Assembly: GCA_035946735.1 (NCBI GenBank)
Contig: DASYYZ010000024.1
Location: 13,475-77,474 of the forward strand
Length of the DNA stretch: 64,000 bases
Direction: 5' to 3'
Source of the DNA: Terriglobia bacterium
GTDB taxonomy: Bacteria > Acidobacteriota > Terriglobia > UBA7540
A model generated the notes under the pieces. The model made no database searches. It was not told where the DNA came from and saw only the letters and a list, made by a program, of their open reading frames with translations. Below, piece by piece: positions 4,429 through 38,371 of the stretch (positions within the stretch are counted from its first letter, which is position 1; each line of letters opens with the position of its first letter). The position numbers and the translations under genes were made by a program.

Positions 4429-5601
4429 ATGCGGGGAACAGGCGGGAACGATTCCGGGAAGACTTGGGCAATGAGGTCGCCGCAGGAACACCGCCCGCGC
4501 CTGAACCGAGGCCGCTCGGCCTTGATCGTCACGGCGTGCGCCGGCCTTCTTATCGCCGGCGTCCACTCTCAGGCGCAGAACGCGGCGCCACCGCAATCCC
4601 CGAATCCGGCCGTGCAGACCAAGTCCGCGGGGCCGGGCTCGGCGCAGAATCCAGGTAACATTCGGGTAAGCGTGCAGCTTGTGAACGTGCCTGTCACGGT
4701 GCTCGACAAGCGCGGCGTGCCGGTGATCGACCTCACGCAGAACGATTTTAAGGTTTACGAAAACGGCGTCCAGCAATCCATCAACTACTTTCGCCAGGAG
4801 CCCGCGCCTCCCTTGCGGATCGGCTTGATCATCGACACCAGCAACAGCGCCCGGCCGCTGCTCGCCTACGAGAAAGACGCTGCCGCCGAGTTCATCTACC
4901 AGATGCTGCAGGGCCGCAACACCAAGAATGAAGTGTTCCTCGAGACCTTCGATTCGGAGAGCTCCATTCTGCACGATTTTTCGGCCGATCCCGATGAGTT
5001 GAACGAGAAAATCCGCGATCTCAAGGCCGGCGGCGGCAAGGCGCTATACGACGCCATCTACGCGGCCTGTCGCGAGAAAATGCTGAATTCCGGCGACCCC
5101 GAGTCTACGCGGCGCGTGGTGGTGGTGATGAGCGACGGGTTGGACGTCCAGAGCACCCATACCTTGGATGAGGTTATCTCCATGGCGCACCGGGCCGAAA
5201 CTGTCGTTTACACCATCCTGAACTCGCCTTATGGATTTGGCTCCGACTCCAACAAGATCCTGCAGCGCCTGGCCGAGCAGACTGGAGGCGCCTACCTCTT
5301 CCCCCAGGAGAATCCGGCGGGCTCGGATCTGGGCAGCGGTTATCTCGCGCATGGGCAAATCGGATGCACGTCGCAAAACGAGGGTCTGGACGCCAAGACC
5401 GGGATCTATACGGCCGAGCGCCTAGCACACCTGTCAGACTCAGTGGAAGCGATCGGTCGCGAGCTGAACGACCAGTACTTCATCGGATATAAGCCCTCCA
5501 ATCCGGCCCTGGACGGCACCTATCGCGCCATCAAGGTGGTGGCCTCGCGGCGGGAAGTTCGAGTCCGTTTTAAGCCGGGATACTTCGCGACATCTGAGTA
5601 A
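4429..5601 (+). CDS. VWA domain protein (Acidobacterial VWFA-related, TIGR03436-like)
   Basis: Motif VNVPVTVLDKRGVPV.DLTQNDFKVYENGVQQ.I.YF followed by a VWA-like core (IGLIIDTSNS ... VVVVMSDGLD). The start codon is uncertain because several in-frame starts exist. Confidence 0.8.
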   Translation: MRGTGGNDSGKTWAMRSPQEHRPRLNRGRSALIVTACAGLLIAGVHSQAQNAAPPQSPNPAVQTKSAGPGSAQNPGNIRVSVQLVNVPVTVLDKRGVPVIDLTQNDFKVYENGVQQSINYFRQEPAPPLRIGLIIDTSNSARPLLAYEKDAAAEFIYQMLQGRNTKNEVFLETFDSESSILHDFSADPDELNEKIRDLKAGGGKALYDAIYAACREKMLNSGDPESTRRVVVVMSDGLDVQSTHTLDEVISMAHRAETVVYTILNSPYGFGSDSNKILQRLAEQTGGAYLFPQENPAGSDLGSGYLAHGQIGCTSQNEGLDAKTGIYTAERLAHLSDSVEAIGRELNDQYFIGYKPSNPALDGTYRAIKVVASRREVRVRFKPGYFATSE

Positions 5602-5779
5602 GATATCTCTCTCCCTTTGGATTTATGACATGTAACATACTGATTGTGCGGGACTTATATATTATTGATAACATTACACTAAAATATCTTTATAAACTGA
5701 AACTAATGTCTGATTCTGCGCATCTACTTAATGTGTCTGAAGTTCAAGACAAAACACTGATTTAAGAGGAGTGTATAAC

Positions 5780-6277
5780 ATGGCGATTGTTCGTTGGGAA
5801 CCATTTCGTGAGCTGCTGTCAACTCAGGACCGTTTCAACCAGCTTTTCAACCAGACCTTTAGCCAAGCCTTTGGCAAGGAGGGTCAGGAGCTGGCGAGCC
5901 GAAACTGGGCTCCTGCAGTGGATATCTACGAGACCGACCATAACCTTGTGATCAAGACGGAGCTGCCTGGGATCGATCCCAAGGACGTGGAAGTTCGCGT
6001 CGAAAACAACACCCTTGTCTTGCAAGGTGAGCGTAAGTTCGAGAAGAACACCAGTGAGGAGAATTATCACCGCGTCGAACGTAGTTATGGTACATTCTCG
6101 CGCTCGTTTACGCTGCCAAGCACCGTCAACACTGAAAACGCGCAGGCGGAATACAAGGACGGCATTCTGACCTTGACCCTCGCGAAGCGCGAAGAGGCGA
6201 AGCCCAAGACCATCAAGATCCAGGTGGCGGATTCTGAGCCCAAGGCTCAGGCTGCAGCCGCGGCCGCCAGGAAGTAA
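5780..6277 (+). CDS. Hsp20/alpha-crystallin small heat-shock protein
   Basis: MAIVRWEPFRELLSTQDRFNQLF..., then an alpha-crystallin core (AVDIYETDHNLVIKTELPGIDPKDVEVRVENNTLVLQGERK...SYGTFSRSFTLP). AAGAGGAG lies 8 nt upstream of the ATG at 5780; the track start at 5771 is less likely. Confidence 0.9.
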   Translation: MAIVRWEPFRELLSTQDRFNQLFNQTFSQAFGKEGQELASRNWAPAVDIYETDHNLVIKTELPGIDPKDVEVRVENNTLVLQGERKFEKNTSEENYHRVERSYGTFSRSFTLPSTVNTENAQAEYKDGILTLTLAKREEAKPKTIKIQVADSEPKAQAAAAAARK

Positions 6278-6375
6278 CTGCGGCGGCTCGGGCCGGATGA
6301 GACAACAAAGAGGTATGTATCGGGCGTTCGCTGGTGCGACTTACCGTGCGAAATCCGCCGCAGCACCGGTGAATG

Positions 6376-6423
6376 AAGGCCGCGTTCGAGGCGCACAGAC
6401 CTCGGGCGCGGCCTTTTTTTTTT
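6376..6423 (+). terminator. Rho-independent terminator after hsp20
   Basis: AAGGCCGCG ... CGCGGCCTT stem with an inner CGAGG/CCTCG stem, followed by a run of ~10 T. Confidence 0.6.
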
Positions 6424-6463
6424 GACCCTTGTGTTTTTGAATTCTTGAGATCAGGTTTAAACT

Positions 6464-9115
6464 ATGGCTACTCGATTTGACAAGTTTACCGTAAAGGCCC
6501 AGGAGGCTCTGCAGAGCACCCAGGATATCGCTGGACGTTTTGGCAATCAGCAGCTCGAGCCGGTACATCTGTTGCTTGCTTTGGCTGAGCAGCCGGAGGG
6601 CATCGTTCCGGCGATCCTCAGCCGGCTAGGCGTCGCACTCGGAACTCTGGCAGCCGAGGCCGAGAGGGAGATCGAGAAGCTGCCCAAGGTGGGCGGCACT
6701 TCGGACCACCATCTCTCCGTCGCCCTGAAAGAAGCGCTCGACCAGGCGCCGCGCGAGGCCGAACCCTTCCACGACGAATTCGTGTCCACCGAGCACATGC
6801 TGCTGGCGCTTGCCCGCAAACCCAGGGAAGCGGCGGGGCGAATCCTTTCACAACTCGGGATCACGCACGATTCAATCTTGAAGGCGCTGGTGGCAGTGCG
6901 GGGTACGCAGCGCATCACCGATCCGAATCCGGAGGCCAAGTATCAGGCGCTCGAGCGCTACGCGCGCGACCTGACCGACCTGGCCCGTCGCGGCAAGCTG
7001 GACCCTGTCATCGGCCGGGACGATGAGGTCCGGCGCGTGATCCAAGTGCTTTCGCGCCGCACTAAGAACAATCCTGTGCTGATCGGCGAGCCGGGCGTTG
7101 GCAAGACGGCAATCGTGGAGGGCATCGCGCAGCGAATCGTCTCCGGCGACGTGCCCGAGTCGTTGCGCTCGAAGCGTCTGGTCGCGCTCGATCTGGGCGC
7201 GCTGATTGCCGGATCCAAGTATCGGGGCGAGTTTGAAGACCGGCTCAAGGCCGTCCTCAAGGAGATCGAGGAATCGAGCGGGCAGGTGATCCTGTTCATC
7301 GACGAGCTGCATACCCTGGTGGGCGCCGGAGCCGCTGAAGGCGCCATCGACGCCTCGAACATGCTGAAGCCGGCGCTGGCGCGCGGAGAGCTGCGCTGTA
7401 TTGGCGCCACCACGCTCAACGAGTTCAAGAAGCACATCGAGAAGGACGCGGCTTTGGAGCGGCGCTTTCAGCCCGTCTACGTTGGCGAGCCTACCGTGGA
7501 AGACACCATCGCTATTCTGCGCGGACTCAAAGAGCGCTACGAAGAACATCACGAGGTGCGGATTAAGGACTCGGCGATCGTGGCTGCCGCCGTGCTCTCG
7601 AACCGCTATATTACTGACCGTTTCCTGCCTGACAAGGCCATCGACTTGATCGACGAGGCGGCCTCCAGCCTGCGGATCGAGATCGACTCCAAGCCGGTCG
7701 AGATCGACCGGATCGAGAGGTGCGTCACCCAGCTTGAAATCGAGCGTCATGCGCTGGGCAAGGAGGATGATCCCGCCTCAAAGGAGCGTCTTAAGGCGAT
7801 CGAGCAGGAGCTCGGCGAGCTGCGCGAGAAGTCCGATGCGTTGAAGCTGCGCTGGAGGGCAGAAAAGGAAGTGATCACCCGCATCAGCACTTTGAAGAGC
7901 CAGATCGAGCAGGCCAAGGCCGAGGAGCAGCGCGTCACTGCCGAGGGCAACCTCAACAAGGCGTCCGAGATTTTGTACGGGACACTCCCGTCTCTCGAGA
8001 AGCAACTGGCAGCCGCTGAAGGTGACTTGGAAAAGAAGCAGCAGGCCGGGCGCATGCTTAAGTCCGAGGTCGATGAAGAGGACGTGGCGCGCGTGGTCTC
8101 GAAGTGGACCGGCATCCCGGGCTCGAAGCTGCTCGAAGGCGAGGTCGTCAAGCTTGTTGGGATGGAAAACCGCCTGCGCCTGCGGGTGGTGGGCCAGGAC
8201 GACGCTTTAAAGCTGGTCGCGAACGCCGTGCGTCGCAGCCGTGCCGGTCTCTCCGACCCGAACCGTCCCATCGGCTCGTTTCTGTTTCTGGGGCCGACGG
8301 GCGTCGGCAAGACCGAGCTTGCTCGCGCTCTCGCTGAATTTCTGTTCGACGACGAACACGCCATGCTGCGCATCGATATGTCGGAATACATGGAGAAACA
8401 CTCGGTGGCCCGGCTCATCGGCGCGCCTCCGGGCTACGTCGGCTACGAGGAAGGCGGCCAGTTGACCGAGCCCGTCCGGCGCCGGCCTTATGCCGTGCTG
8501 CTGTTCGATGAAATCGAGAAGGGGCACACCGACGTCTTCAACATCTTTCTGCAGGTTCTCGATGAGGGCCGGCTCACCGATGGCCAGGGCCGCACCGTAA
8601 GCTTCCAGAACACGGTGATCATCATGACTTCTAACATCGCGAGCCATGAAATTCATGCTGCGATGGGGCCCGAGGGCGGGCACGACAAGCGCTCCGGTGA
8701 GTCACACGAGATTTCCGAGGGGCTGCGGCGGAACATCCAGGCCACTCTGCTGCAACATTTCCGGCCGGAATTTATCAACCGGATCGACGAGATCGTGATC
8801 TTCAATCCGCTTGGCAAGCGGGAAATCGAGAAGATCGTCGATCTGCAGCTCGACCACGTGCGCCGCCTGCTGTCCGAACGCAAGGTGGAATTGGATCTCA
8901 CGGACAAGGCTCGCGAGCTGCTGTTCCGCGAAGGCTACGACCCGCAATTCGGCGCCCGTCCCCTGAAGCGGGCCATCCAGCGGCTCATCCAGGACCCGCT
9001 CGCCATGAAGCTGCTCGAAGGCGACGTCCGTCCCGGCGACAAAGTGCTGCTGGATGGCGATTTGCGCAAAGGCGAGATGAAGTTCGAGCGGGAAACAGCG
9101 AAAGCCGCGCCTTGA
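6464..9115 (+). CDS. clpB: ClpB disaggregase (AAA+ chaperone)
   Basis: Clp N-domain, two Walker A motifs ([16 protein letters not shown]), a long coiled-coil middle domain, 883 aa. Confidence 0.97.
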
Positions 9116-23207: not shown

Positions 23208-25118
23208 GTGCCTTTTGCGCCCACACCGGAGCAGCAAACCATTCTTGCCCACGACCTTGGTCGCCACGCCAGGGTGCTTGCCGGTCCGGGGACCGGAAAG
23301 AGCGCCACCTTAGTTGCGCTCGTCACTCAGCTATTGGAAGGAAGGCCGAGGCCGAGGATTAGGCTGCTCACTTTCACGCGCGCGGCCACCAGCGAACTGG
23401 CCCAAAAAGTCTCGGAGCACCCGGCAGCAGCCGCGGAGCGGCCGAGTACGATTCACTCCTTTGCCATCTCCGCACTGCTCCAGAATCCAGGTTCCGCTGA
23501 CTTCCCTGGGCCGCTGCGAATCGCTGACAAATGGGAGTACAAGAACATCGTTCGACCTACGCTCGCCAGACTCGTCGGCGTCGGAGTAACTGATCTCGAC
23601 GAACTCGTCACTGAAATGGCCGCGAATTGGCAATCACTTCGGAATGACGAGCGCCCCGACATTGACCCTGAGACCCGAGCCCGCTTTCTAGGGGCTTGGC
23701 AAGAGCACCGTGGAATCTACGGCTACACTCTGCTTGACGAGCTTCCCTATCGATTTAGGAGTGCTCTGCGGGATCACCCGAATCTCGAAGGAATTGACTA
23801 CGACCTTCTCATCATTGACGAGTATCAAGATCTAAATGCTTGCGACCTGGAACTTCTTAAGTTCATTGCTGCACGCGGTTGCTCGCTGATCGCTGCTGGC
23901 GATGACGATCAGTCAATCTACTCGTTCCGAAAAGCCGCGCCCGACGGGATTCGCAATTTCCCAGACCGATACCCAGAATCTGACGACTACCCACTCTCGG
24001 TTACTCAGCGCTGTGGCCGCAGGATCATTCATTGGGCAGCCCATGTCATTGAGGGTGATCCCGGCAGACCCGCCCGGCCGCGCCTTAGGGTGGCTCCTGC
24101 CTCTCCTGACGGCGAGGCCGCTCTACTCGCCTTCGACAACGACGCTCACGAGGCTTGGGGAGTTGCGGCACTAATCGACAAGTTGGTTAGCCGCGAGCAC
24201 GTCGAGCCGGCTGACATCCTCGTTTTGCTCCGCACTGACCACAATGGGCAGTTTAGCCGGCCGATCAAGGAGCATTTACAGAGAAAGGGTATTTCTTTCT
24301 TCGACCCCGACGTGATCGAAAGAATTCTGGCTGATCGGTCCAACAGGTTCCTCCTTGAGGTCTGTCGTCTCCTTATTCACCCTATCGATTCAATTTCATG
24401 GGCTGCGCTACTTCTCTTGACACCACGAATCGGGGACGCTTTCCTCGACTACGTTTATGGCCGAGGACGACGTGATGGCAGCCGATTTGGAGCTACGTTG
24501 CTTGCCCTAAACAACGAAGGTTTTCCTGACGGTCCGCGAGGGTCCACAACGGCCGCTCGTGACCTGATAGCGAGGATGCAGCCTTGGCTGAACGAGCACG
24601 AACCTCCCGAGAATGTGCCCGATGGCCGCTGGGGACGGTGGATAACAGACAGCTTGGGCCAAGGAGATGATATGGTCCCTGCCCCTACCCCGGATCTCGT
24701 TCACCTCCTTAGTCAGCTCGACGAGCACGCTGAAGAGGGCGAGGGATTAGACCGTTATCTCTCCCAGATTGGACCCCTCGGCAAGGACCTTGCCCTCGCC
24801 CAGCGAGAGGGCGTCCGGATCATGAGCATGGCGGGTTCTAAAGGCTTAACGGTTCGCGCCACCATCGTAGCGGCGGTGGAGGACGGGTTAATTCCAAGGC
24901 CCGACCAGGATCTTGCCGAGGAACGGCGCTTGCTCTACGTTGCGATGACAAGGGCTCGGGAATTTCTTTTTTGCACTTGGGCTCGCGTTCGACGAGGTCC
25001 TACCGCCCGAGCGGGGGAGGCGCAAGTCAATCGCCTAAGACGGCATTCTCCTTTTCTAGATGGCGGCCCTATCGAATCCGAGGATGGGCGACGATATATT
25101 GAAGCTCGCTGGCCGTAA
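23208..25118 (+). CDS. UvrD/Rep-family (SF1) helicase
   Basis: Motifs LAGPGTGKSATL (Walker A), TFTRAAT, TIHSFA, IIDEYQDLN, AGDDDQSIYSFR, SVTQRCG, MAGSKGLT, LLYVAMTRARE. GGAGGA lies 6 nt before the GTG at 23208; the track start at 23151 is also possible. Confidence 0.85.
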   Translation: MPFAPTPEQQTILAHDLGRHARVLAGPGTGKSATLVALVTQLLEGRPRPRIRLLTFTRAATSELAQKVSEHPAAAAERPSTIHSFAISALLQNPGSADFPGPLRIADKWEYKNIVRPTLARLVGVGVTDLDELVTEMAANWQSLRNDERPDIDPETRARFLGAWQEHRGIYGYTLLDELPYRFRSALRDHPNLEGIDYDLLIIDEYQDLNACDLELLKFIAARGCSLIAAGDDDQSIYSFRKAAPDGIRNFPDRYPESDDYPLSVTQRCGRRIIHWAAHVIEGDPGRPARPRLRVAPASPDGEAALLAFDNDAHEAWGVAALIDKLVSREHVEPADILVLLRTDHNGQFSRPIKEHLQRKGISFFDPDVIERILADRSNRFLLEVCRLLIHPIDSISWAALLLLTPRIGDAFLDYVYGRGRRDGSRFGATLLALNNEGFPDGPRGSTTAARDLIARMQPWLNEHEPPENVPDGRWGRWITDSLGQGDDMVPAPTPDLVHLLSQLDEHAEEGEGLDRYLSQIGPLGKDLALAQREGVRIMSMAGSKGLTVRATIVAAVEDGLIPRPDQDLAEERRLLYVAMTRAREFLFCTWARVRRGPTARAGEAQVNRLRRHSPFLDGGPIESEDGRRYIEARWP

Positions 25119-25227
25119 GCGAGTAGCTACGGTCGGCGCGTCCTGACCGCGCGGGCTCTTGCGCCCGTCGGAAAGGCCCACGGAGGGGTGGCGTAGACGG
25201 TGAACTCAATACCCCGAGGGTCAAGTC

Positions 25228-26931
25228 GTGACGGACGGTACATTGAGGGCCGGCAAAGCCTGCCCTGAAGCTCTGGAGGAAATGGCTGAGCGGAGGACGC
25301 TGGCGGCCGGCGGAGGCCATTCCAGGTTTAGAGCCGCCTACTTCGTGGTCGCGATGCTGTTGGTGCTGGGGCGCGCCCTGCCCGTGCTCAGCAACTTTCC
25401 GGGGCGCGACCAGGGTACGTATCTCACCATTGGCCGGAGCCTGCTTCAGGGCCGCGTCCTTTACCGCGACCTTTGGGAGAACAAGCCGCCCGGCATCTTT
25501 TATATCTACGGGCTAATCGGCAAGGCTTTTGGCACGCGCCTGTGGTGCGTGGCCGCCGTGGATTTGGCGCTACTCCTGGTGGTGTCCTGGTGCATCTTCC
25601 ACTTCGCGGAGCGATACCTGGGGCCGGCGGGAGCAGCCGTGGCCGTAATCGTACACGGCGTGTGGCATGTCGAAGCGGGCTACATCTTCACCGCTCAGCC
25701 TGAGTTTTTCCAGCTTCCGCTGATTTTCGGCGCCTATTTCTCGGTGGCCGGTGCTAGCCTCCGAGGGCAATCGAGACTCCGGGCCAGGCACCTTGCCGCC
25801 GGCATGCTGCTGGGGACTGCATTCTGGCTCAAGTATAACGCGGTCGTATTTCTGCCCTGGTTGTTGGTTCCATATCTCGACGGTAGGGCCCTCAACGACC
25901 ATCCCTCACGCCTTGGTCTTACCGTGGGTCTCGGCGACCTGTTGGAGCGGATGGCCTGGATCATACTGGGATTTGGGTCACTCGTTCTCGGCGTGATCGC
26001 TTACTTCGGGCTGGAAGGAGCGCTTCCAGCGCTTCGCGAGGTGCAATTTCAGGTGCTGCCTCGCTACGCGGCCATGGCTGTAGAAGCCCGGCCCCTGCCG
26101 CTCGGGCAGTGGATCGCCGTGCGCTCCGAGATTTGCTTGGGTGCGGCCACCCTCGTGGCTACGGCGGTAGCGTTAGTGGTAGCGAGGTGGCGGCGCGATC
26201 TTGCCCGCACCGCGCCGCTCTTCACCGGAGCGGCCGCAGCCTACGCCGCTACTGCCATCCAGATGCGTTTCCACGGCTATTACTTCGCCACTTGTTACCC
26301 GTTCTTCGCCTTAATATGGGCCTACTTGGCCCTGACCCTCTGGGAATTGTGCCGCGGCGCTGCTCACGCTTGCGCCTGCCGGTATTGGAGGCTCGGCCAG
26401 GTCCTGGTCTGGCTGTTGTTCGCGAGTATCCTTTGCTGGCCGGTGCTGGCAGACTCCGGAAGGACCCAGGTGGACTACGAGAATCTTCGCGAGTGGCGGT
26501 CCGATCCGGAGAACTTCTACCGTCACCACCATTGGATGTATCTTGAGCACATAGACGGCCAGCTCCAAGTGATTCACTACCTGAAGGCAAATGCAGCGCC
26601 CGCAGACCAAATCTTCCTCTGGGGCGGACACACGCTCATTTGTTATCTTGCCGAGCGCCCTTGCGTCACGCGCTTCGTTTCGAATCTGGGGCTGATGTCG
26701 CTCTGGGCTCCGCAGGCTTGGCGTGACGAGGCGGCCCGGCAACTCCGCGTCCAGCACCCCACGTGGATTGTGGTGGCGCGCGCAGATGCGCTTCCGAGCA
26801 TCACCTTTTTGACTCTTTCCTCGGACCGGTATCTCGCCAAGAGATATCCCGATCTCGCCACTCTCGTCAGGGAGGAATACACTCCAGTGGCGGACTTCTC
26901 GACCTTTGTGGTGTACCGGCACATTCGCTGA
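25228..26931 (+). CDS. Polytopic membrane glycosyltransferase, GT39/ArnT-like
   Basis: GRDQGTYLTIGRSLLQGRVLYRDLWENKPPGIFYIY loop motif and more than 10 predicted TM helices. Start uncertain. Confidence 0.7.
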   Translation: MTDGTLRAGKACPEALEEMAERRTLAAGGGHSRFRAAYFVVAMLLVLGRALPVLSNFPGRDQGTYLTIGRSLLQGRVLYRDLWENKPPGIFYIYGLIGKAFGTRLWCVAAVDLALLLVVSWCIFHFAERYLGPAGAAVAVIVHGVWHVEAGYIFTAQPEFFQLPLIFGAYFSVAGASLRGQSRLRARHLAAGMLLGTAFWLKYNAVVFLPWLLVPYLDGRALNDHPSRLGLTVGLGDLLERMAWIILGFGSLVLGVIAYFGLEGALPALREVQFQVLPRYAAMAVEARPLPLGQWIAVRSEICLGAATLVATAVALVVARWRRDLARTAPLFTGAAAAYAATAIQMRFHGYYFATCYPFFALIWAYLALTLWELCRGAAHACACRYWRLGQVLVWLLFASILCWPVLADSGRTQVDYENLREWRSDPENFYRHHHWMYLEHIDGQLQVIHYLKANAAPADQIFLWGGHTLICYLAERPCVTRFVSNLGLMSLWAPQAWRDEAARQLRVQHPTWIVVARADALPSITFLTLSSDRYLAKRYPDLATLVREEYTPVADFSTFVVYRHIR

Positions 26932-27098
26932 CTGGAAAAAGCTGCCGCAAACCGCTGCGAGGGTCATGCACGCGGCAAACAGATCACCGTCAGCCGCCCG
27001 AACTGCGGCGCTCCCAGCGTCAGCACAGTCGCTATCTTTCACCAAAAGAGCCTCGGCGTGGCCCAGGGCCACGCCGAGGCTGAGGCGGACCTGGGGGC

Positions 27099-35110: not shown

Positions 35111-35419
35111 AAAGCGTTCACAGGGACACTATAAACCCGGCAATTGTCACGGCCAAACGCGTTCATAGGGACGCAAGAACCCGGGCCGGGGAACACATCT
35201 CCGACCGTTTCTAGCTCTTAGCGGGGTACCCCTACTTGGGTCGAGCGCGCGATGAAGATTTGCGCCCAGGTCGAGGGCCTGACGCTGGCAACGCTCGATA
35301 AGCGGCCGCGCGCCGCCGCCGGACGCGCTGGGGTGGAGCTGTTCCGGCCTGGTCAGGCCCGAGGCGAAGCTAGAGAGGGCGGACTGGCGCACAGCCTGAG
35401 CACAAGCAGTTGGCAGTTT

Positions 35420-35434
35420 GCCTCAGACTGAGGC
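35420..35434. promoter_or_regulatory. Palindrome immediately upstream of the RHH gene (candidate autoregulatory operator)
   Basis: GCCTCAG-A-CTGAGGC lies 13 nt before the ATG at 35448. A GCCTCA half-site recurs at the start codon. Confidence 0.3.
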
Positions 35435-35447
35435 ATAGTGGTGACAT

Positions 35448-35756
35448 ATGCCTCACTCTCAAGTGACAGCTACAAAACGGGACCGGCGCGGGGCCAAGAC
35501 CGGCAGGCGTAAGCTCGAGTTGCGATATACGGTGAGCCTGCCGCCCGGACTCGCCCATCGTGTCGAGCGGTATGCCGAGACAGTTGACACGAGTAGGAGC
35601 AAGGCGATCGCTGCGCTCGTGCGCTTTGGCCTGGACGGCCAGGAGAACCGAAAACGGGAGTTCTTCAAGAGGCTGAGGCAAAACCTTGCCGGCGGCGATC
35701 CGCAGAACGAAGATCAGCTCGTTGATGAGTTCCGGGCCCTGATCCTCGGCTGTTGA
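35448..35756 (+). CDS. Ribbon-helix-helix (CopG/Arc-like) protein
   Basis: LRYTVSLPPGLAHRVERYAETVDTSRSKAIAALVRFGL matches a beta-strand/helix/helix RHH pattern. Confidence 0.7.
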   Translation: MPHSQVTATKRDRRGAKTGRRKLELRYTVSLPPGLAHRVERYAETVDTSRSKAIAALVRFGLDGQENRKREFFKRLRQNLAGGDPQNEDQLVDEFRALILGC

Positions 35757-35759
35757 CGC

Positions 35760-36002
35760 ATGCCAAAGATTCAGTGGGAACGACTCCCCAGAGAAAGGTG
35801 GGCTCACCTTCGCGACCGCGCCCAGCAGCGGGAGATCTCCGAGGAAGACCTGTTTGAACTTGCGGAGTGGAAAGCTCAAGACCCCGACGTGCCCGACGCG
35901 GACTGGTACAAGGATTTCGGAACTTTTAAACTGTGTGGTACGGGGAGATATCCGAGCACGTTCCTTCTGGCGGGTCAGGCCGCGCGCGGCAAGCGCTTGT
36001 GA
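35760..36002 (+). CDS. Small hypothetical protein, possible partner of the RHH protein
   Basis: It starts 4 nt after the RHH stop. 80 aa, no family recognised. Confidence 0.5.
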   Translation: MPKIQWERLPRERWAHLRDRAQQREISEEDLFELAEWKAQDPDVPDADWYKDFGTFKLCGTGRYPSTFLLAGQAARGKRL

Positions 36003-36173
36003 GGGCACGTCAGTCAGGTTTGGCGTGATGCAGGCGGATGATGCACATCGAATCCTGATTTCGCGTCCAAAACTCGCCTCCCGGCGGTCCGGTGACTCGC
36101 ACACGCGGCAGCTCGAGGGGAGACGTAGGCGCCACCCGCATGACGCTAGCGGTAGTTGCCGACATTTCCCTTG

Positions 36174-36202
36174 TTTACAAGCGGCCAAATTTGTTCTACT
36201 GT
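36174..36202 (+). promoter_or_regulatory. Candidate sigma70-like promoter for the small-HTH gene array
   Basis: TTTACA, 17 nt spacer, TACTGT, about 12 nt upstream of the first possible start at 36214 (or 24 nt from the alternative ATG at 36226). Confidence 0.25.
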
Positions 36203-36213
36203 GCCCATGCTGG

Positions 36214-36471
36214 ATGTCGATCACTATGGAAAACGAGCTATTGGAGAACATCAACAGAAACCTTGAGGTGATTATTGGCTTGCTGCTCCGCAGCCTGCCC
36301 GATTCAGACGCCGCACACCTTCGCGGGCGCATTGTCATGCTGAATGACATGGGCATGCGGCCGAAGGATATCGCAAGAGTGTTGGGTAAATCAACGAATC
36401 ACATTAACGTTGAATTGTCGCGGAGCCGCAAGCCAAAGAGGAAGAGAGGGGTAGAGCGTGAAGAAGGCTAG
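36214..36471 (+). CDS. Small HTH protein, paralog 1 of 3
   Basis: LENINRNLEVIIGLLLRSL ... RIVMLNDMGMRPKDIARVLGKSTNHINVELSRSRKPKRK. The start may instead be the ATG at 36226. Confidence 0.6.
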   Translation: MSITMENELLENINRNLEVIIGLLLRSLPDSDAAHLRGRIVMLNDMGMRPKDIARVLGKSTNHINVELSRSRKPKRKRGVEREEG

Positions 36472-36655
36472 CAGCACTGAAGAGCTTCTTGTGGCCCAAT
36501 CAGAACTCATTCGAGACATGTTTATTACCGAGTTAACGATCGCGGGCGTACCGCAACGAGAGATCGCGAAAGTCGTGCGGGTCAACCTGAACCGCGTAAA
36601 TCGCATCGCCAAGTCCTTGCGCAAACGAAACAAAAATAGTAACGGAGAGAACTAA
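36458..36655 (+). CDS. Small HTH protein, paralog 2 of 3 (shorter)
   Basis: GTG start with a GAGAGGGG SD, overlapping the previous gene by 14 nt. ...ELTIAGVPQREIAKVVRVNLNRVNRIAKSLRKRNK. Confidence 0.55.
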   Translation: MKKASSTEELLVAQSELIRDMFITELTIAGVPQREIAKVVRVNLNRVNRIAKSLRKRNKNSNGEN

Positions 36656-36899
36656 ATGGCCGAAGCGGACGTGCTCGAAAAACAGTCGCGCAAGTTGAAC
36701 GTCGTCATCGGACTCCTACTGCGCGTACTGTTAAAGGACGAGGATTTCACACAAAGGAAGAGGAAAGGGACCGGTGAGTTGGCCGTGTACTTGAAGCGAC
36801 ACGGTCTTGAGTACCCAAGACATTGCGGCTATACTCGATTCCCCAGTCGCAAGCGTGCGCGAGTTGGTCGGCCGGAGCAGCCGAAGAAAGAAGCCGTGA
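36656..36899 (+). pseudogene. Small HTH protein, paralog 3 of 3, interrupted by a 1-nt frame change near 36809
   Basis: Frame 0 gives LEKQSRKLNVVIGLLLRVL...ELAVYLKRHGL. The +1 frame from 36810 gives STQDIAAILDSPVASVRELVGRSSRRKKP*. Joined, they align colinearly with paralog 1 (80 vs 81 aa). The track ORF 36656..36940 continues in the wrong frame. Confidence 0.55.
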
Positions 36900-36943
36900 T
36901 CGTACGCGTGCTGGTGAACCCCTTGCGCCTAAAACCTTAGAGC

Positions 36944-37468
36944 ATGATAGGCGACCGGAAGCCACAATCATATGACTTCCACGCGGACATTCGCCTGCAT
37001 AAGGCAGAGAGCGAAGGACGGCAGCAAATGAGGGCACGGAATGGCAAGGAAGAACCCTACCAGCAAATATTGCACCGGCTCGCGCATATCGAACATAAGG
37101 TGGATTCGATAGATGAGACGAACGCGTTTGCGCTGCGGGCGGAGGCAGAAAAGCATCAGGGGACAGTCAAGAAGATTTTCAAGAAGAGTAAGCGGAGGGC
37201 GCAGGTCTATCTGGCTGCCGATGGTACTTGGGGCGTGGCTGAGATCGCCAAGCATCTCAGAATGAAACAACCAAATGTGAGCCCAGACCTAAGAATCCTG
37301 AAAGAGGAAGGGCTTCTGGAGCTTATAGACGCCTCTGGTAGGCAGGATTTCTGGGCGAAAAAGACAATCGACAAAACGCTCCGCATCTCCAAGTATCTCT
37401 GTGAGGAATACAGCCTAAAGCCTGACGGGCGCCCTAACAGTGAAGGCAAAGACAAGAGGAGGAAATAG
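36944..37468 (+). CDS. Winged-HTH (ArsR/MarR-like) protein
   Basis: RAQVYLAADGTWGVAEIAKHLRMKQPNVSPDLRILKEEGLLELIDASGRQDFWAKK. The start may be the ATG at 37028 (MRARNG). Confidence 0.6.
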   Translation: MIGDRKPQSYDFHADIRLHKAESEGRQQMRARNGKEEPYQQILHRLAHIEHKVDSIDETNAFALRAEAEKHQGTVKKIFKKSKRRAQVYLAADGTWGVAEIAKHLRMKQPNVSPDLRILKEEGLLELIDASGRQDFWAKKTIDKTLRISKYLCEEYSLKPDGRPNSEGKDKRRK

Positions 37469-37489
37469 CTGGATGGCGCACAAATCGGA

Positions 37490-38277
37490 ATGATCTTCTC
37501 AATCCAAACTTACCTAGAAGACTATTTCAATCGACGTGGGCTTGGCGATCCCGACCAGTACGCCGTCGCGCTGGCGAGGTTGTATGACCGCGAGCGTCAC
37601 GGCACGACTGCGCCCGTCTTTCTGGCCGCGATGAAGCGCATTAGGACGATTTTTTATAAGCGCAACAATCATATCGAGCGTGACAAGTTTGACCGGAAGA
37701 TGCTGACCCTCTTAGACAGTAAGTTTAAAAAAAAAGACTATTCTTCGTGTCAAAGGCAGTCGCCAAAAGAGTTGAAGCCTCCGGCAGCAGCCTAGCGAAA
37801 TGTCCTCGCGTTACCATCCGCAAATTCCTTGAAGAGTTCAAGAGCACAATCGAGGCCGAGGCAGTAAATTCGTTTTGGGAATCGCGAACCGAGGGAAAGC
37901 TGAAGAAACGTCCGGAGAAGCACGGGCAGGAACTTCTCGGTGTGTTCGCTCGTGCAAAACTGGCAGCAAGGGGATCCGCAATCCGAGAGGCGGTGTCTGG
38001 CATTGGATTCGTGGATGTGCTTGTGACGTTCTCATCTGGACTGCTTCACGTGATCGAATTGAAAATGTTGAAGGGCAAGGATATCCCGGGGCCAGCACAA
38101 CTGGCGATATACATGAACCACAAGCGGCGACCGGAGGGCTGGCTTGTCTTCTTTGATGCACGTAAACCGAATGGGAGGCCGGCCGTCCCAACCGTGTTCA
38201 AGAAACCGTCTGGAACGATAAGAGCTGTTCTGATTGACATCAATCCGTTAGCGCCGAGTAGACAGAGCGAGGCATGA
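37490..38277 (+). CDS. PD-(D/E)xK (RecB-like, QxxxY) nuclease-fold protein encoded in two frames joined at an A9 tract
   Basis: ORF 37490..37795 and the downstream frame, which opens exactly at 37729 inside AAAAAAAAA (37727-37735). The downstream part carries GFVDVLV...LLHVIELKMLKG...PAQLAIYM (D, ExK, QxxxY). Confidence 0.55.
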
Positions 38278-38371
38278 TCTCTTTTTAAGCAAGGTAGCGG
38301 AGACCGCGCTTGCCGGTCTGCGGCATTTCAAACCGCAAACAGCCGCAGATCCAAGGGTCCAGCCAGAGCGC

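Follow-up and report, generated by a model that had tools for sequence, protein, structure and literature searches.

In the insertion sequences (IS) IS1 and IS3, genes are typically organised as OrfA/OrfAB around an A-rich -1 site: a short upstream open reading frame (ORF) specifies a small helical domain, slipping by -1 on an A run attaches a catalytic domain to it, a zero-frame stop follows soon after, and two products arise in a set ratio. Transcriptional slippage at A9 or T9 in Thermus thermophilus dnaX and Shigella mxiE needs no RNA stimulator; A runs longer than 7, such as A9 in Thermus dnaX, are documented sites of transcriptional realignment, and -1 programmed ribosomal frameshifting (PRF) is documented for the heptamer A_AAA_AAA (PMC3711429). 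Here we describe a locus of this kind in a 64,000-nucleotide (nt) stretch of an Acidobacteriota genome (Terriglobia bacterium, assembly GCA_035946735.1, contig DASYYZ010000024.1, positions 13,475 to 77,474 of the forward strand), referred to as the window. It is a cassette of helix-turn-helix (HTH) genes and one nuclease gene of the Pfam family PF28130 (DUF8371), which appears to be divided by a conserved programmed -1 frameshift site. All the features named above for IS1 and IS3 have a counterpart here, the two products in a set ratio being predicted; however, the cassette carries a PD-(D/E)xK nuclease and not a DDE transposase, neither terminal repeats nor a downstream stimulator were found, and the DUF8371 N-domain is not a recognisable HTH. 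With dnaX and mxiE the gene shares nine identical bases within the coding region, at a domain boundary. Slippage shortens the product of Thermus dnaX, whose long form is encoded in frame; in most DUF8371 lineages, as in mxiE, the long form instead requires slippage. A DUF8371 outgroup clade has the dnaX-like arrangement.

Two further groups of described systems are related to the cassette in part. PDDEXK_9 (PF08011), the C-domain of EndoMS/NucS, McrC and Mrr have the same core, with D...ExK and a QxxxY helix after it, but show no significant sequence match to DUF8371, and its N-terminal helical domain is without structural neighbour. C-protein-regulated restriction endonucleases and type II toxin-antitoxin systems likewise have one or more small HTH genes directly upstream of, and probably co-transcribed with, a potentially toxic nuclease; unlike them, the cassette has no methyltransferase, several HTH genes, a dose that would be set by recoding, and no family match. 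A-run recoding and HTH-controlled nuclease modules are known kinds of arrangement. What is new, and the most informative aspect of the locus, is the split of the nuclease gene.

The initial annotation of the window had pointed to seven packed same-strand ORFs as one AT-richer cassette with two disrupted genes. The feature is real, but its boundaries were drawn too wide, and the split nuclease gene was misread as decay. The region consists of two unrelated modules, a pair of genes for a ribbon-helix-helix (RHH) protein and an 80-amino-acid (aa) protein, and the cassette proper at 36159-38285. All ORFs and junctions that had been listed exist: on the plus strand, three-frame translation gives ORFs at 35448-35756 and 35760-36002, an ORF to 36471 that is overlapped by a start at 36458, junctions at 36655/36656, 36940/36944 and 37468/37490, and an overlap of 37490-37795 with 37747-38277. 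However, the last two ORFs appear to form one gene, the winged-helix (wHTH) gene starts at 37028 and not at 36944, and the third small HTH gene ends at 36898. The AT-richness judged by eye was borne out by calculation. The guanine-cytosine (GC) content is 0.52-0.54 across 36-38.5 kb compared to about 0.60 around it, and the segment 36159-38285 (GC 0.522) is the minimum among all 2127-nt windows of the 64 kb. In blastn comparisons with a close relative (L014) and other loci only 36159-36983 and 37049-38285 of the window aligned, and the flanks had no match; homology sets in at about 36159 and stops at about 38285, 8 nt past the nuclease stop codon. The cassette contains three small HTH genes, one ArsR-type wHTH gene and one DUF8371 PD-(D/E)xK nuclease gene:

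36159-38285, plus strand: conserved AT-richer cassette, delimited by DNA homology to related loci (blastn)
36214 or 36226-36471, plus strand: small HTH gene A (about 81-85 aa); likely start ATG 36226 (MENELL), conserved in L014
36458-36655, plus strand: small HTH gene B (65 aa, GTG start), 14-nt overlap with A; its orthogroup occurs in 53 loci
36656-36898, plus strand: small HTH gene C, disrupted in the window by a 1-nt insertion
37028-37468, plus strand: ArsR/HTH_5-type winged-helix regulator (PF01022), 146 aa, with a helical N-terminal extension
37490-37795, plus strand: zero-frame ORF of the DUF8371 gene, 101-aa product; N-domain of five helices (aa 1-80), then KKK and 19 out-of-frame codons
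37724-37736, plus strand: recoding site TTT AAA AAA AAA G, whose A9 spans 37727-37735; a TAA (37725-37727) shuts the -1 frame, which is open from within the run onward
37735-38277, plus strand: -1-frame continuation; two linker helices and PD-(D/E)xK core (GFVD177, E191-L-K193, Q205xxxY209)

When 37490-37735 is read on into the -1 frame, the result is a trans-frame protein of 263 aa (gene 37490-38277), which aligned to full-length in-frame homologs of 255-267 aa with 98-100% coverage (84% identity to the database entry P0001, 75% to P0003, and down to 40% to others). The ORFs 37490-37795 and 37747-38277 are best taken as one gene and not two, because such in-frame full-length homologs exist and AlphaFold gives a single two-domain protein. 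In this model (mean pLDDT 86 over 263 aa) a five-helix N-domain (1-80) is followed by a low-confidence linker (81-90), which is the frame junction, and then by two helices and the core.

For comparison we fetched 6 genome and 80 metagenome loci; the bait for the metagenome loci was the C-terminal domain, which is unbiased toward either frame state. TTT-A9-G was found exactly, with the nuclease domain at -1, in 57 of the 67 non-redundant genes having both halves. The other ten comprise four genes with A10 in frame, one with A7 in frame, two of a distant clade with A9 in frame, and three single genes, of which one has A8 and is in the wrong frame, one has A10 at a -1 offset (L013), and one lacks a run altogether. 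The TAA of TT|TAA shuts the -1 frame in all A9/-1 genes, so that this frame is open only inside the run, and in 54 of the 57 a zero-frame stop lies 19-20 codons past it. Elsewhere in the same genes AAA makes up 40% of the Lys codons and TTT 43% of the Phe codons, while AAG and TTC never occur at the site. As these synonymous codons are common elsewhere in the genes, the invariance of TTT-AAA-AAA-AAA reflects selection on the nucleotides. Pairwise comparison of 49 non-redundant complete A9 genes gave a ratio of nonsynonymous to synonymous substitution (dN/dS) of 0.10 in the N part and 0.12 in the C part; the median dS was 1.6-1.8. Read in frame 0, the C part of these 49 genes contains 5-14 stops.

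In a neighbour-joining tree, A9/-1 is the state of a whole large clade, and three A10 genes and one A7 gene are isolated tips nested inside it, so that the frame would have been repaired four times independently. Most of the outgroup clade is in frame, but A9 or A10 runs are still present there at the same KKK position. One outgroup gene, in a Pyrinomonadaceae metagenome-assembled genome (MAG) (L013, 8001-8770), has TTC-A10 with the nuclease at -1, and may be a second independent -1 arrangement or a pseudogene.

The same data bear on several other explanations of the split. Homopolymers are error-prone, and two loci come from long-read MAGs (MFD), so a true A10 might have been read as A9; as the same A9 is present in dozens of independent JGI, ENA and NCBI assemblies, and A10 and A7 were recovered in others, the probability of such a sequencing or assembly error is close to nil. 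The two overlapping ORFs might also encode two separate proteins, the nuclease being translated from its own start or by reinitiation, and gene callers indeed give a 176-aa product from GTG 37747 (P0009), and about 60 database clusters contain short products of the same sort. However, the called starts vary in position and codon. In the C frame of the 49 A9 genes a start codon first becomes available at scattered positions (e.g., codons 55, 92 and 67), mostly 55-92 codons into the conserved region, and none is conserved; moreover, homologs fuse both parts in frame, and the predicted structure is a single folded protein. Independent genes are therefore very unlikely. Among the 100 best database entries, about 60 (P0009-P0096) are C-terminal-only products of 144-228 aa with heterogeneous starts, and these short entries appear to be annotation artefacts of the conserved frameshift.

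Phase variation would place the switch at the DNA level: slipped-strand mispairing of the A tract would turn the gene OFF at A9 and ON at A10 or A7, with no recoding by RNA polymerase or ribosome. Homopolymer tracts are classic switches of this type, and GeneTack lists poly-A near frameshifts as such a signal (PMC3711429). ON lengths (A10, A7) and OFF lengths are both present among the relatives, and periodic selection of the ON state would also keep dN/dS low. The tract is nearly fixed, however, with clade counts of A9 57, A8 1, A11 0, A10 3 and A7 1 although dS (about 1.7) is saturated. The ON alleles are four isolated tips, whereas a fast switch should yield mixed OFF lengths. Also fixed are the flanking TTT, from which the TAA of the -1 frame arises, and the stop of the zero frame, neither of which a simple switch needs. 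We consider phase variation improbable.

The initial annotation had proposed that the frame disruptions mark a decaying remnant, i.e., inactivating mutations in the cargo of a lost mobile element. Two disruptions are indeed present, and the one in small HTH gene C is specific to the window: in a DNA alignment the window has CCC at 36814-36816 where L014, L010, L020 and L030 have CC, and without the extra C the product is 79-80 aa long and matches intact orthologs (79-84 aa) over the entire length at 70-75% identity. This lesion may be a mutation or an assembly error. The window copy also lacks the two extra upstream small HTH genes of several close relatives, of which no remnant was found in 35400-36300. 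The disruption of the nuclease gene is different in kind. It is the same invariant TTT-A9 site in 57 diverged genes whose halves are intact and under purifying selection (dN/dS about 0.1), and no lesion is seen in the other four genes, which have 65-87% identity to their orthologs. Decay of the cassette as a whole is thus highly improbable, and, judged by its sequence, the split of the nuclease gene appears to be a conserved programmed frameshift.

The initial annotation had found no nameable family for any of the proteins. The nuclease, however, belongs to PF28130 (DUF8371), which is assigned to P0009 (the window's own 176-aa ORF, 99% identity) and to most of the 100 listed homologs; the assignment is a precomputed annotation, as the Pfam set scanned here does not contain PF28130. 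An exhaustive profile search retrieved 759 cluster representatives at E <= 1e-3. The D...ExK...QxxxY motif that had been noticed in the sequence is invariant in homologs: D177 (GFVD), E191, K193 (ELK), Q205 and Y209 are present in all members of an alignment of 22 full-length proteins, and a QxxxY after the ExK strand (Q205, Y209) is the RecB-like feature. Neither a local Pfam scan nor a PDB profile search placed the nuclease in a named RecB/Cas4 family by sequence, and the family profile reached only E 0.3-0.9 against PDB sequences. The predicted core has the order alpha-beta-beta-beta-alpha-beta (H143-159, E164-171, E174-181, E187-195, H203-212, E217-224). Foldseek placed it with McrC, the C-domain of EndoMS/NucS, SfsA, Hjc and Mrr-like viral proteins, with a probability of 0.96-1.0 to McrC/EndoMS at E 2e-3 to 1e-2; the searches used the full model, and in PDB and BFVD they gave only generic PD-(D/E)xK or Mrr-like matches, with E above 1e-3. 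With the catalytic motif located on this core fold, the C-domain is predicted to be a member of the PD-(D/E)xK nuclease superfamily.

The N-terminal region (residues 1-128) modelled alone had a pLDDT of 81 overall and about 90 for the five-helix domain, and Foldseek found no neighbour for it in the PDB (best E 2.8). An assignment of the N-domain as HEPN, for which a weak match to AbiU2 (E 0.068) had been obtained, was rejected, as the conserved Rx4-6H motif is absent. In other proteins the DUF8371-type nuclease domain is found at the C-terminus of different partners, namely of a Zn-ribbon and TIR protein of 497 aa (P0300) and of TPR-repeat proteins of 700-800 aa (P0351, P0357 and P0362). P0357 and P0362 also match PDDEXK_9 weakly, and P0362 also matches REase_DpnII-MboI. 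A literature search for DUF8371, PF28130 and PDC-M34, a candidate system introduced below, retrieved no paper.

The genes upstream of the nuclease encode DNA-binding-type proteins. The small HTH proteins had been described as paralogous, and this held: A and C are 32% identical (E 3e-5), and one hidden Markov model built from the family fits A, B and C. Orthologs in L001 and L010 are 70-72% identical to A and 64-66% identical to B. Matches of A, B and C to sigma-70 region 4 (Sigma70_r4_2) and to HTH_23-type families were only sub-threshold. We do not claim the small HTH proteins as paralogs of the wHTH protein, since the similarity detected by hhalign covers only the 27-residue HTH at a probability of 6.5%. 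For the wHTH protein, as the initial annotation had called it, PF01022 (HTH_5) scored 27.2 bits (cutoff 22) at E 3.6e-6, and NCBIfam HTH_metalloreg matched at E 1.5e-8 with a subfamily score under its cutoff. A database entry (P0101) is 100% identical over 146 aa, which supports the start at 37028. In PADLOC this protein matched only generic Csa3/CasR wHTH models, and the best hit of a PDB sequence search was at only E 0.08.

The cassette is a compact, compositionally foreign operon whose gene order is conserved in soil Acidobacteriota and which occupies unrelated genomic contexts. The order of 2-6 small HTH genes, wHTH gene and nuclease gene recurs in about 70 non-redundant Acidobacteriota loci, in keeping with the earlier suggestion of an undescribed, regulator-heavy nuclease cassette. 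The wHTH gene lies directly upstream of DUF8371 in all 13 of the first 13 loci (L001-L013), and a gap of 10-40 nt separates the two in nearly all loci with upstream sequence. In loci with at least 2.5 kb on both sides, mostly 3-5 and up to 6 small HTH genes were counted, from few orthogroups at conserved positions; they lie mostly upstream on the same strand, often with 1-3 more just downstream, and the array is sometimes inverted. One locus (L023, 2629-3416) has a solo DUF8371 gene (A9, -1) without upstream wHTH or small HTH genes, where homology to the window begins only about 30 nt before the start codon. The six genome matches are all Acidobacteriota MAGs, from Terriglobales, Terracidiphilus and Pyrinomonadaceae. 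Flank gene families are almost all confined to a single locus. The cassette of L014 has 81-87% DNA identity to that of the window, with nothing in common beyond it, and the flanks exceed the cassette in GC in 37 of 38 loci (medians 0.55 and 0.51).

About 30 loci have an additional gene of about 170-200 aa after the nuclease, together with downstream HTH genes (e.g., L066 6856-7464, L009 9320-9832 and, on the minus strand, L002 8791-9303). The protein of about 170 aa matches PADLOC PDC-M34B (E 9e-18 to 3e-8) and, weakly, Abi_2, and contains an RNxxxH-like motif (IKRVRNMYSH). PDC-M34 is reportedly an unpublished candidate system of Payne et al. 2021. PDC systems in general are unpublished and untested candidates (PMC11811056). 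The likeness lies in the PDC-M34B-like protein just downstream of the nuclease in these related loci; however, the gene is absent from the window, and none of the five cassette proteins, all of which were scanned, matches PDC-M34A. The nuclease and the small HTH proteins had no match in PADLOC-DB 2.0 and no known defence system was formed, in line with the initial annotation, which knew of no described system with this layout. No cognate methyltransferase was found within the cassette, either in the window or in the mapped loci.

The flanks were surveyed by scanning 18 hand-picked proteins, so that the result is qualitative as to enrichment. These included Mrr, T5orf172, a Gp49/HigB-like toxin, a tyrosine integrase, IS200 and IS481 transposases, a phage capsid protein and a prohead protease. 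At four loci, genes for a prohead protease of caudovirus type (PF04586, E 4.5e-29, from the scan of L066 only) and fibre-like genes with collagen repeats are found within a few kb (sites at L066 263-1885, L074 184-1526 and L086 9632-10240), which suggests nearby prophage remnants. In a distant clade (L005-L007, 699-5951), the genes ahead of the cassette encode a GIY-YIG protein, a DNA methyltransferase (N6/N4) and a protein of 303 aa weakly similar to SduA_C/YhcG PD-(D/E)xK, a setting that resembles a defence island.

Unrelated contexts and foreign GC would also fit a selfish mobile element, in which DUF8371 would be an endonuclease or transposase, an OrfA/OrfAB-type shift would regulate mobility, and the HTH proteins would be DNA-binding accessories. 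The A-rich -1 site can be counted in its favour, and the small HTH proteins faintly match HTH_23, HTH_Tnp_ISL3, TnsD and IS1 InsA. However, all transposase-type matches are far below threshold, the window has one copy, there are no terminal inverted or direct repeats, and homology breaks off about 10 nt or less from the stop codon without a common end motif. The annotators' statement that no integrase or transposase explains the region stands; in the window, neither of these nor a tRNA or Rfam RNA was found near it. We judge a selfish element to be rather unlikely.

A lineage-specific housekeeping operon without a role in conflict, whose HTH proteins would control a regulatory or DNA-repair nuclease, would agree with the location of some copies among core genes (FtsK, MnmE, GroEL) and with the closest folds, which include the repair nucleases EndoMS/NucS and Hjc. 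The patchy, context-independent distribution, the foreign GC, the fusions to TIR and TPR proteins and the association with an Abi_2/PDC-M34B-like gene speak against it, and we give it little credence.

The interpretation we prefer, and consider probable as a whole, is that of a context-moving operon with a programmed -1 split of the nuclease gene, two products of this gene and an effector of the defence or addiction type, the RHH pair being separate. Expression could follow either of two routes. RNA polymerase would slip on A9 and add one A in part of the transcripts, or ribosomes would slip by -1 on A_AAA_AAA. The site has features of both, as the A9 run conserved at the frame junction is of the length (>7-8 nt) at which programmed transcriptional realignment occurs, and A_AAA_AAA in frame 0 conforms to the X_XXY_YYZ pattern of canonical -1 PRF. 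By either route most translation would end 19 codons on and give the 101-aa N-domain protein as the major product, and the minority product would be the 263-aa fusion of N-domain and nuclease, with the predicted junction peptide ...DSKFKKKKRLFF... / KFKKKKRLFFVSK. The gene would thus probably make two products in a fixed ratio, the nuclease being the minor one. The frameshift would set a low ratio of nuclease to N-domain, comparable to OrfA/OrfAB of IS elements or tau/gamma of dnaX.

In this proposal the cassette would be a conflict module, of the defence or addiction type, with the nuclease as effector. The wHTH and small HTH proteins would act on the nuclease as repressors or as targeting factors, and the free N-domain might be a built-in competitor or partner that restrains nuclease activity. 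We infer that a role in conflict (defence, abortive infection or addiction) may be plausible because of the mobility and foreign GC of the cassette, the fusions to TIR and TPR proteins, the Abi_2/PDC-M34B-like gene, and the logic of keeping a toxic nuclease scarce. A more specific version would be a new conflict system in which the HTH proteins and the ArsR-like regulator jointly gate the nuclease, RNA polymerase slippage on A9 both sets the dose and acts as a sensor, and the free N-domain is inhibitor or partner; in this full form the idea is speculative and, in our view, unlikely.

Several observations weigh against the preferred interpretation. On the side of expression, no downstream stimulatory structure was found (RNAalifold energy 0 for 49 sequences; median z of the downstream 70 nt, -0.07), and just 2 of 49 genes have a Shine-Dalgarno-like element upstream, which leaves ribosomal PRF of the classical, high-efficiency type without support. 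Transcriptional slippage and weak -1 PRF look alike at the sequence level, and the missing stimulators tend to favour slippage. Small HTH gene C is broken in the window copy, and the interpretation gives no account of the need for several distinct small HTH proteins. On the side of function, searches with the nuclease in local Pfam, PHROG, PADLOC and NCBIfam gave nothing significant (NucS_C, E 0.031), and its functional class is proposed from association. Many flanks consist of housekeeping genes such as FtsK, MnmE and GroEL. No att-like or terminal repeats bracket the cassette, and mobility is explained by neither repeats nor a recombinase. No prophage or plasmid module was recognised in the collections: the DUF8371 family had no match in a phage collection of 50,697 records and no confirmed locus in IMG/VR, and the plasmid collection gave a single weak match, to a Vibrio plasmid (29.7% identity over 56% of the query, E 2e-7).

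The RHH gene and its partner, which had been counted as part of the cassette, lie outside it:

35448-35756, plus strand: RHH-like gene, 102 aa (phrog_24852, E 6.8e-6), first gene of the independent pair
35760-36002, plus strand: 80-aa gene, partner of the RHH gene

They are placed outside because the pair (35448-36002) has a GC of 0.605, like the flanks, because neither gene is present in any of 93 loci carrying nuclease relatives, and because the pair occurs elsewhere alone. The 80-aa protein has 421 homolog clusters, with 76-90% identity among the 120 listed, and none of them has a Pfam family. In L094 and L095-L098 its homolog follows, after a gap of 3-4 nt, the gene of a 95-105-aa protein with 62-69% identity to the RHH protein of the window (pair at 3679-4243 in L094 and 3710-4243 in L095-L098); these neighbourhoods are entirely unlike that of the window, and the HTH and nuclease genes are absent there. 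The RHH and 80-aa genes are an independent, very highly conserved two-gene unit that merely abuts the cassette. The unit occupies unrelated Acidobacteriota neighbourhoods, and is possibly toxin-antitoxin-like or regulatory.

Promoter and terminator scans of the region scored no better than shuffles. The only other dip in GC in the window (0.51-0.54, at 5500-6500) falls on a gene for a small heat-shock protein of the Hsp20 type (5771-6277), with ClpB next to it downstream (6464-9115), and looks ordinary; at 25000-27000 the AT skew is strongly negative (to -0.30) over about 1.5 kb.

If the proposed expression of the nuclease gene is correct, it adds a deeply conserved case of recoding, with 57 independent lineages, in a chromosomal gene other than those of transposases, dnaX and prfB. 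In the more specific and speculative version above, a change in slippage or in the stability of the N-domain, for instance during takeover of transcription by a phage, would unleash the nuclease. To our knowledge, almost no defence or addiction systems have been tested in Acidobacteriota, and the operon is a concrete candidate for a new system of this kind.

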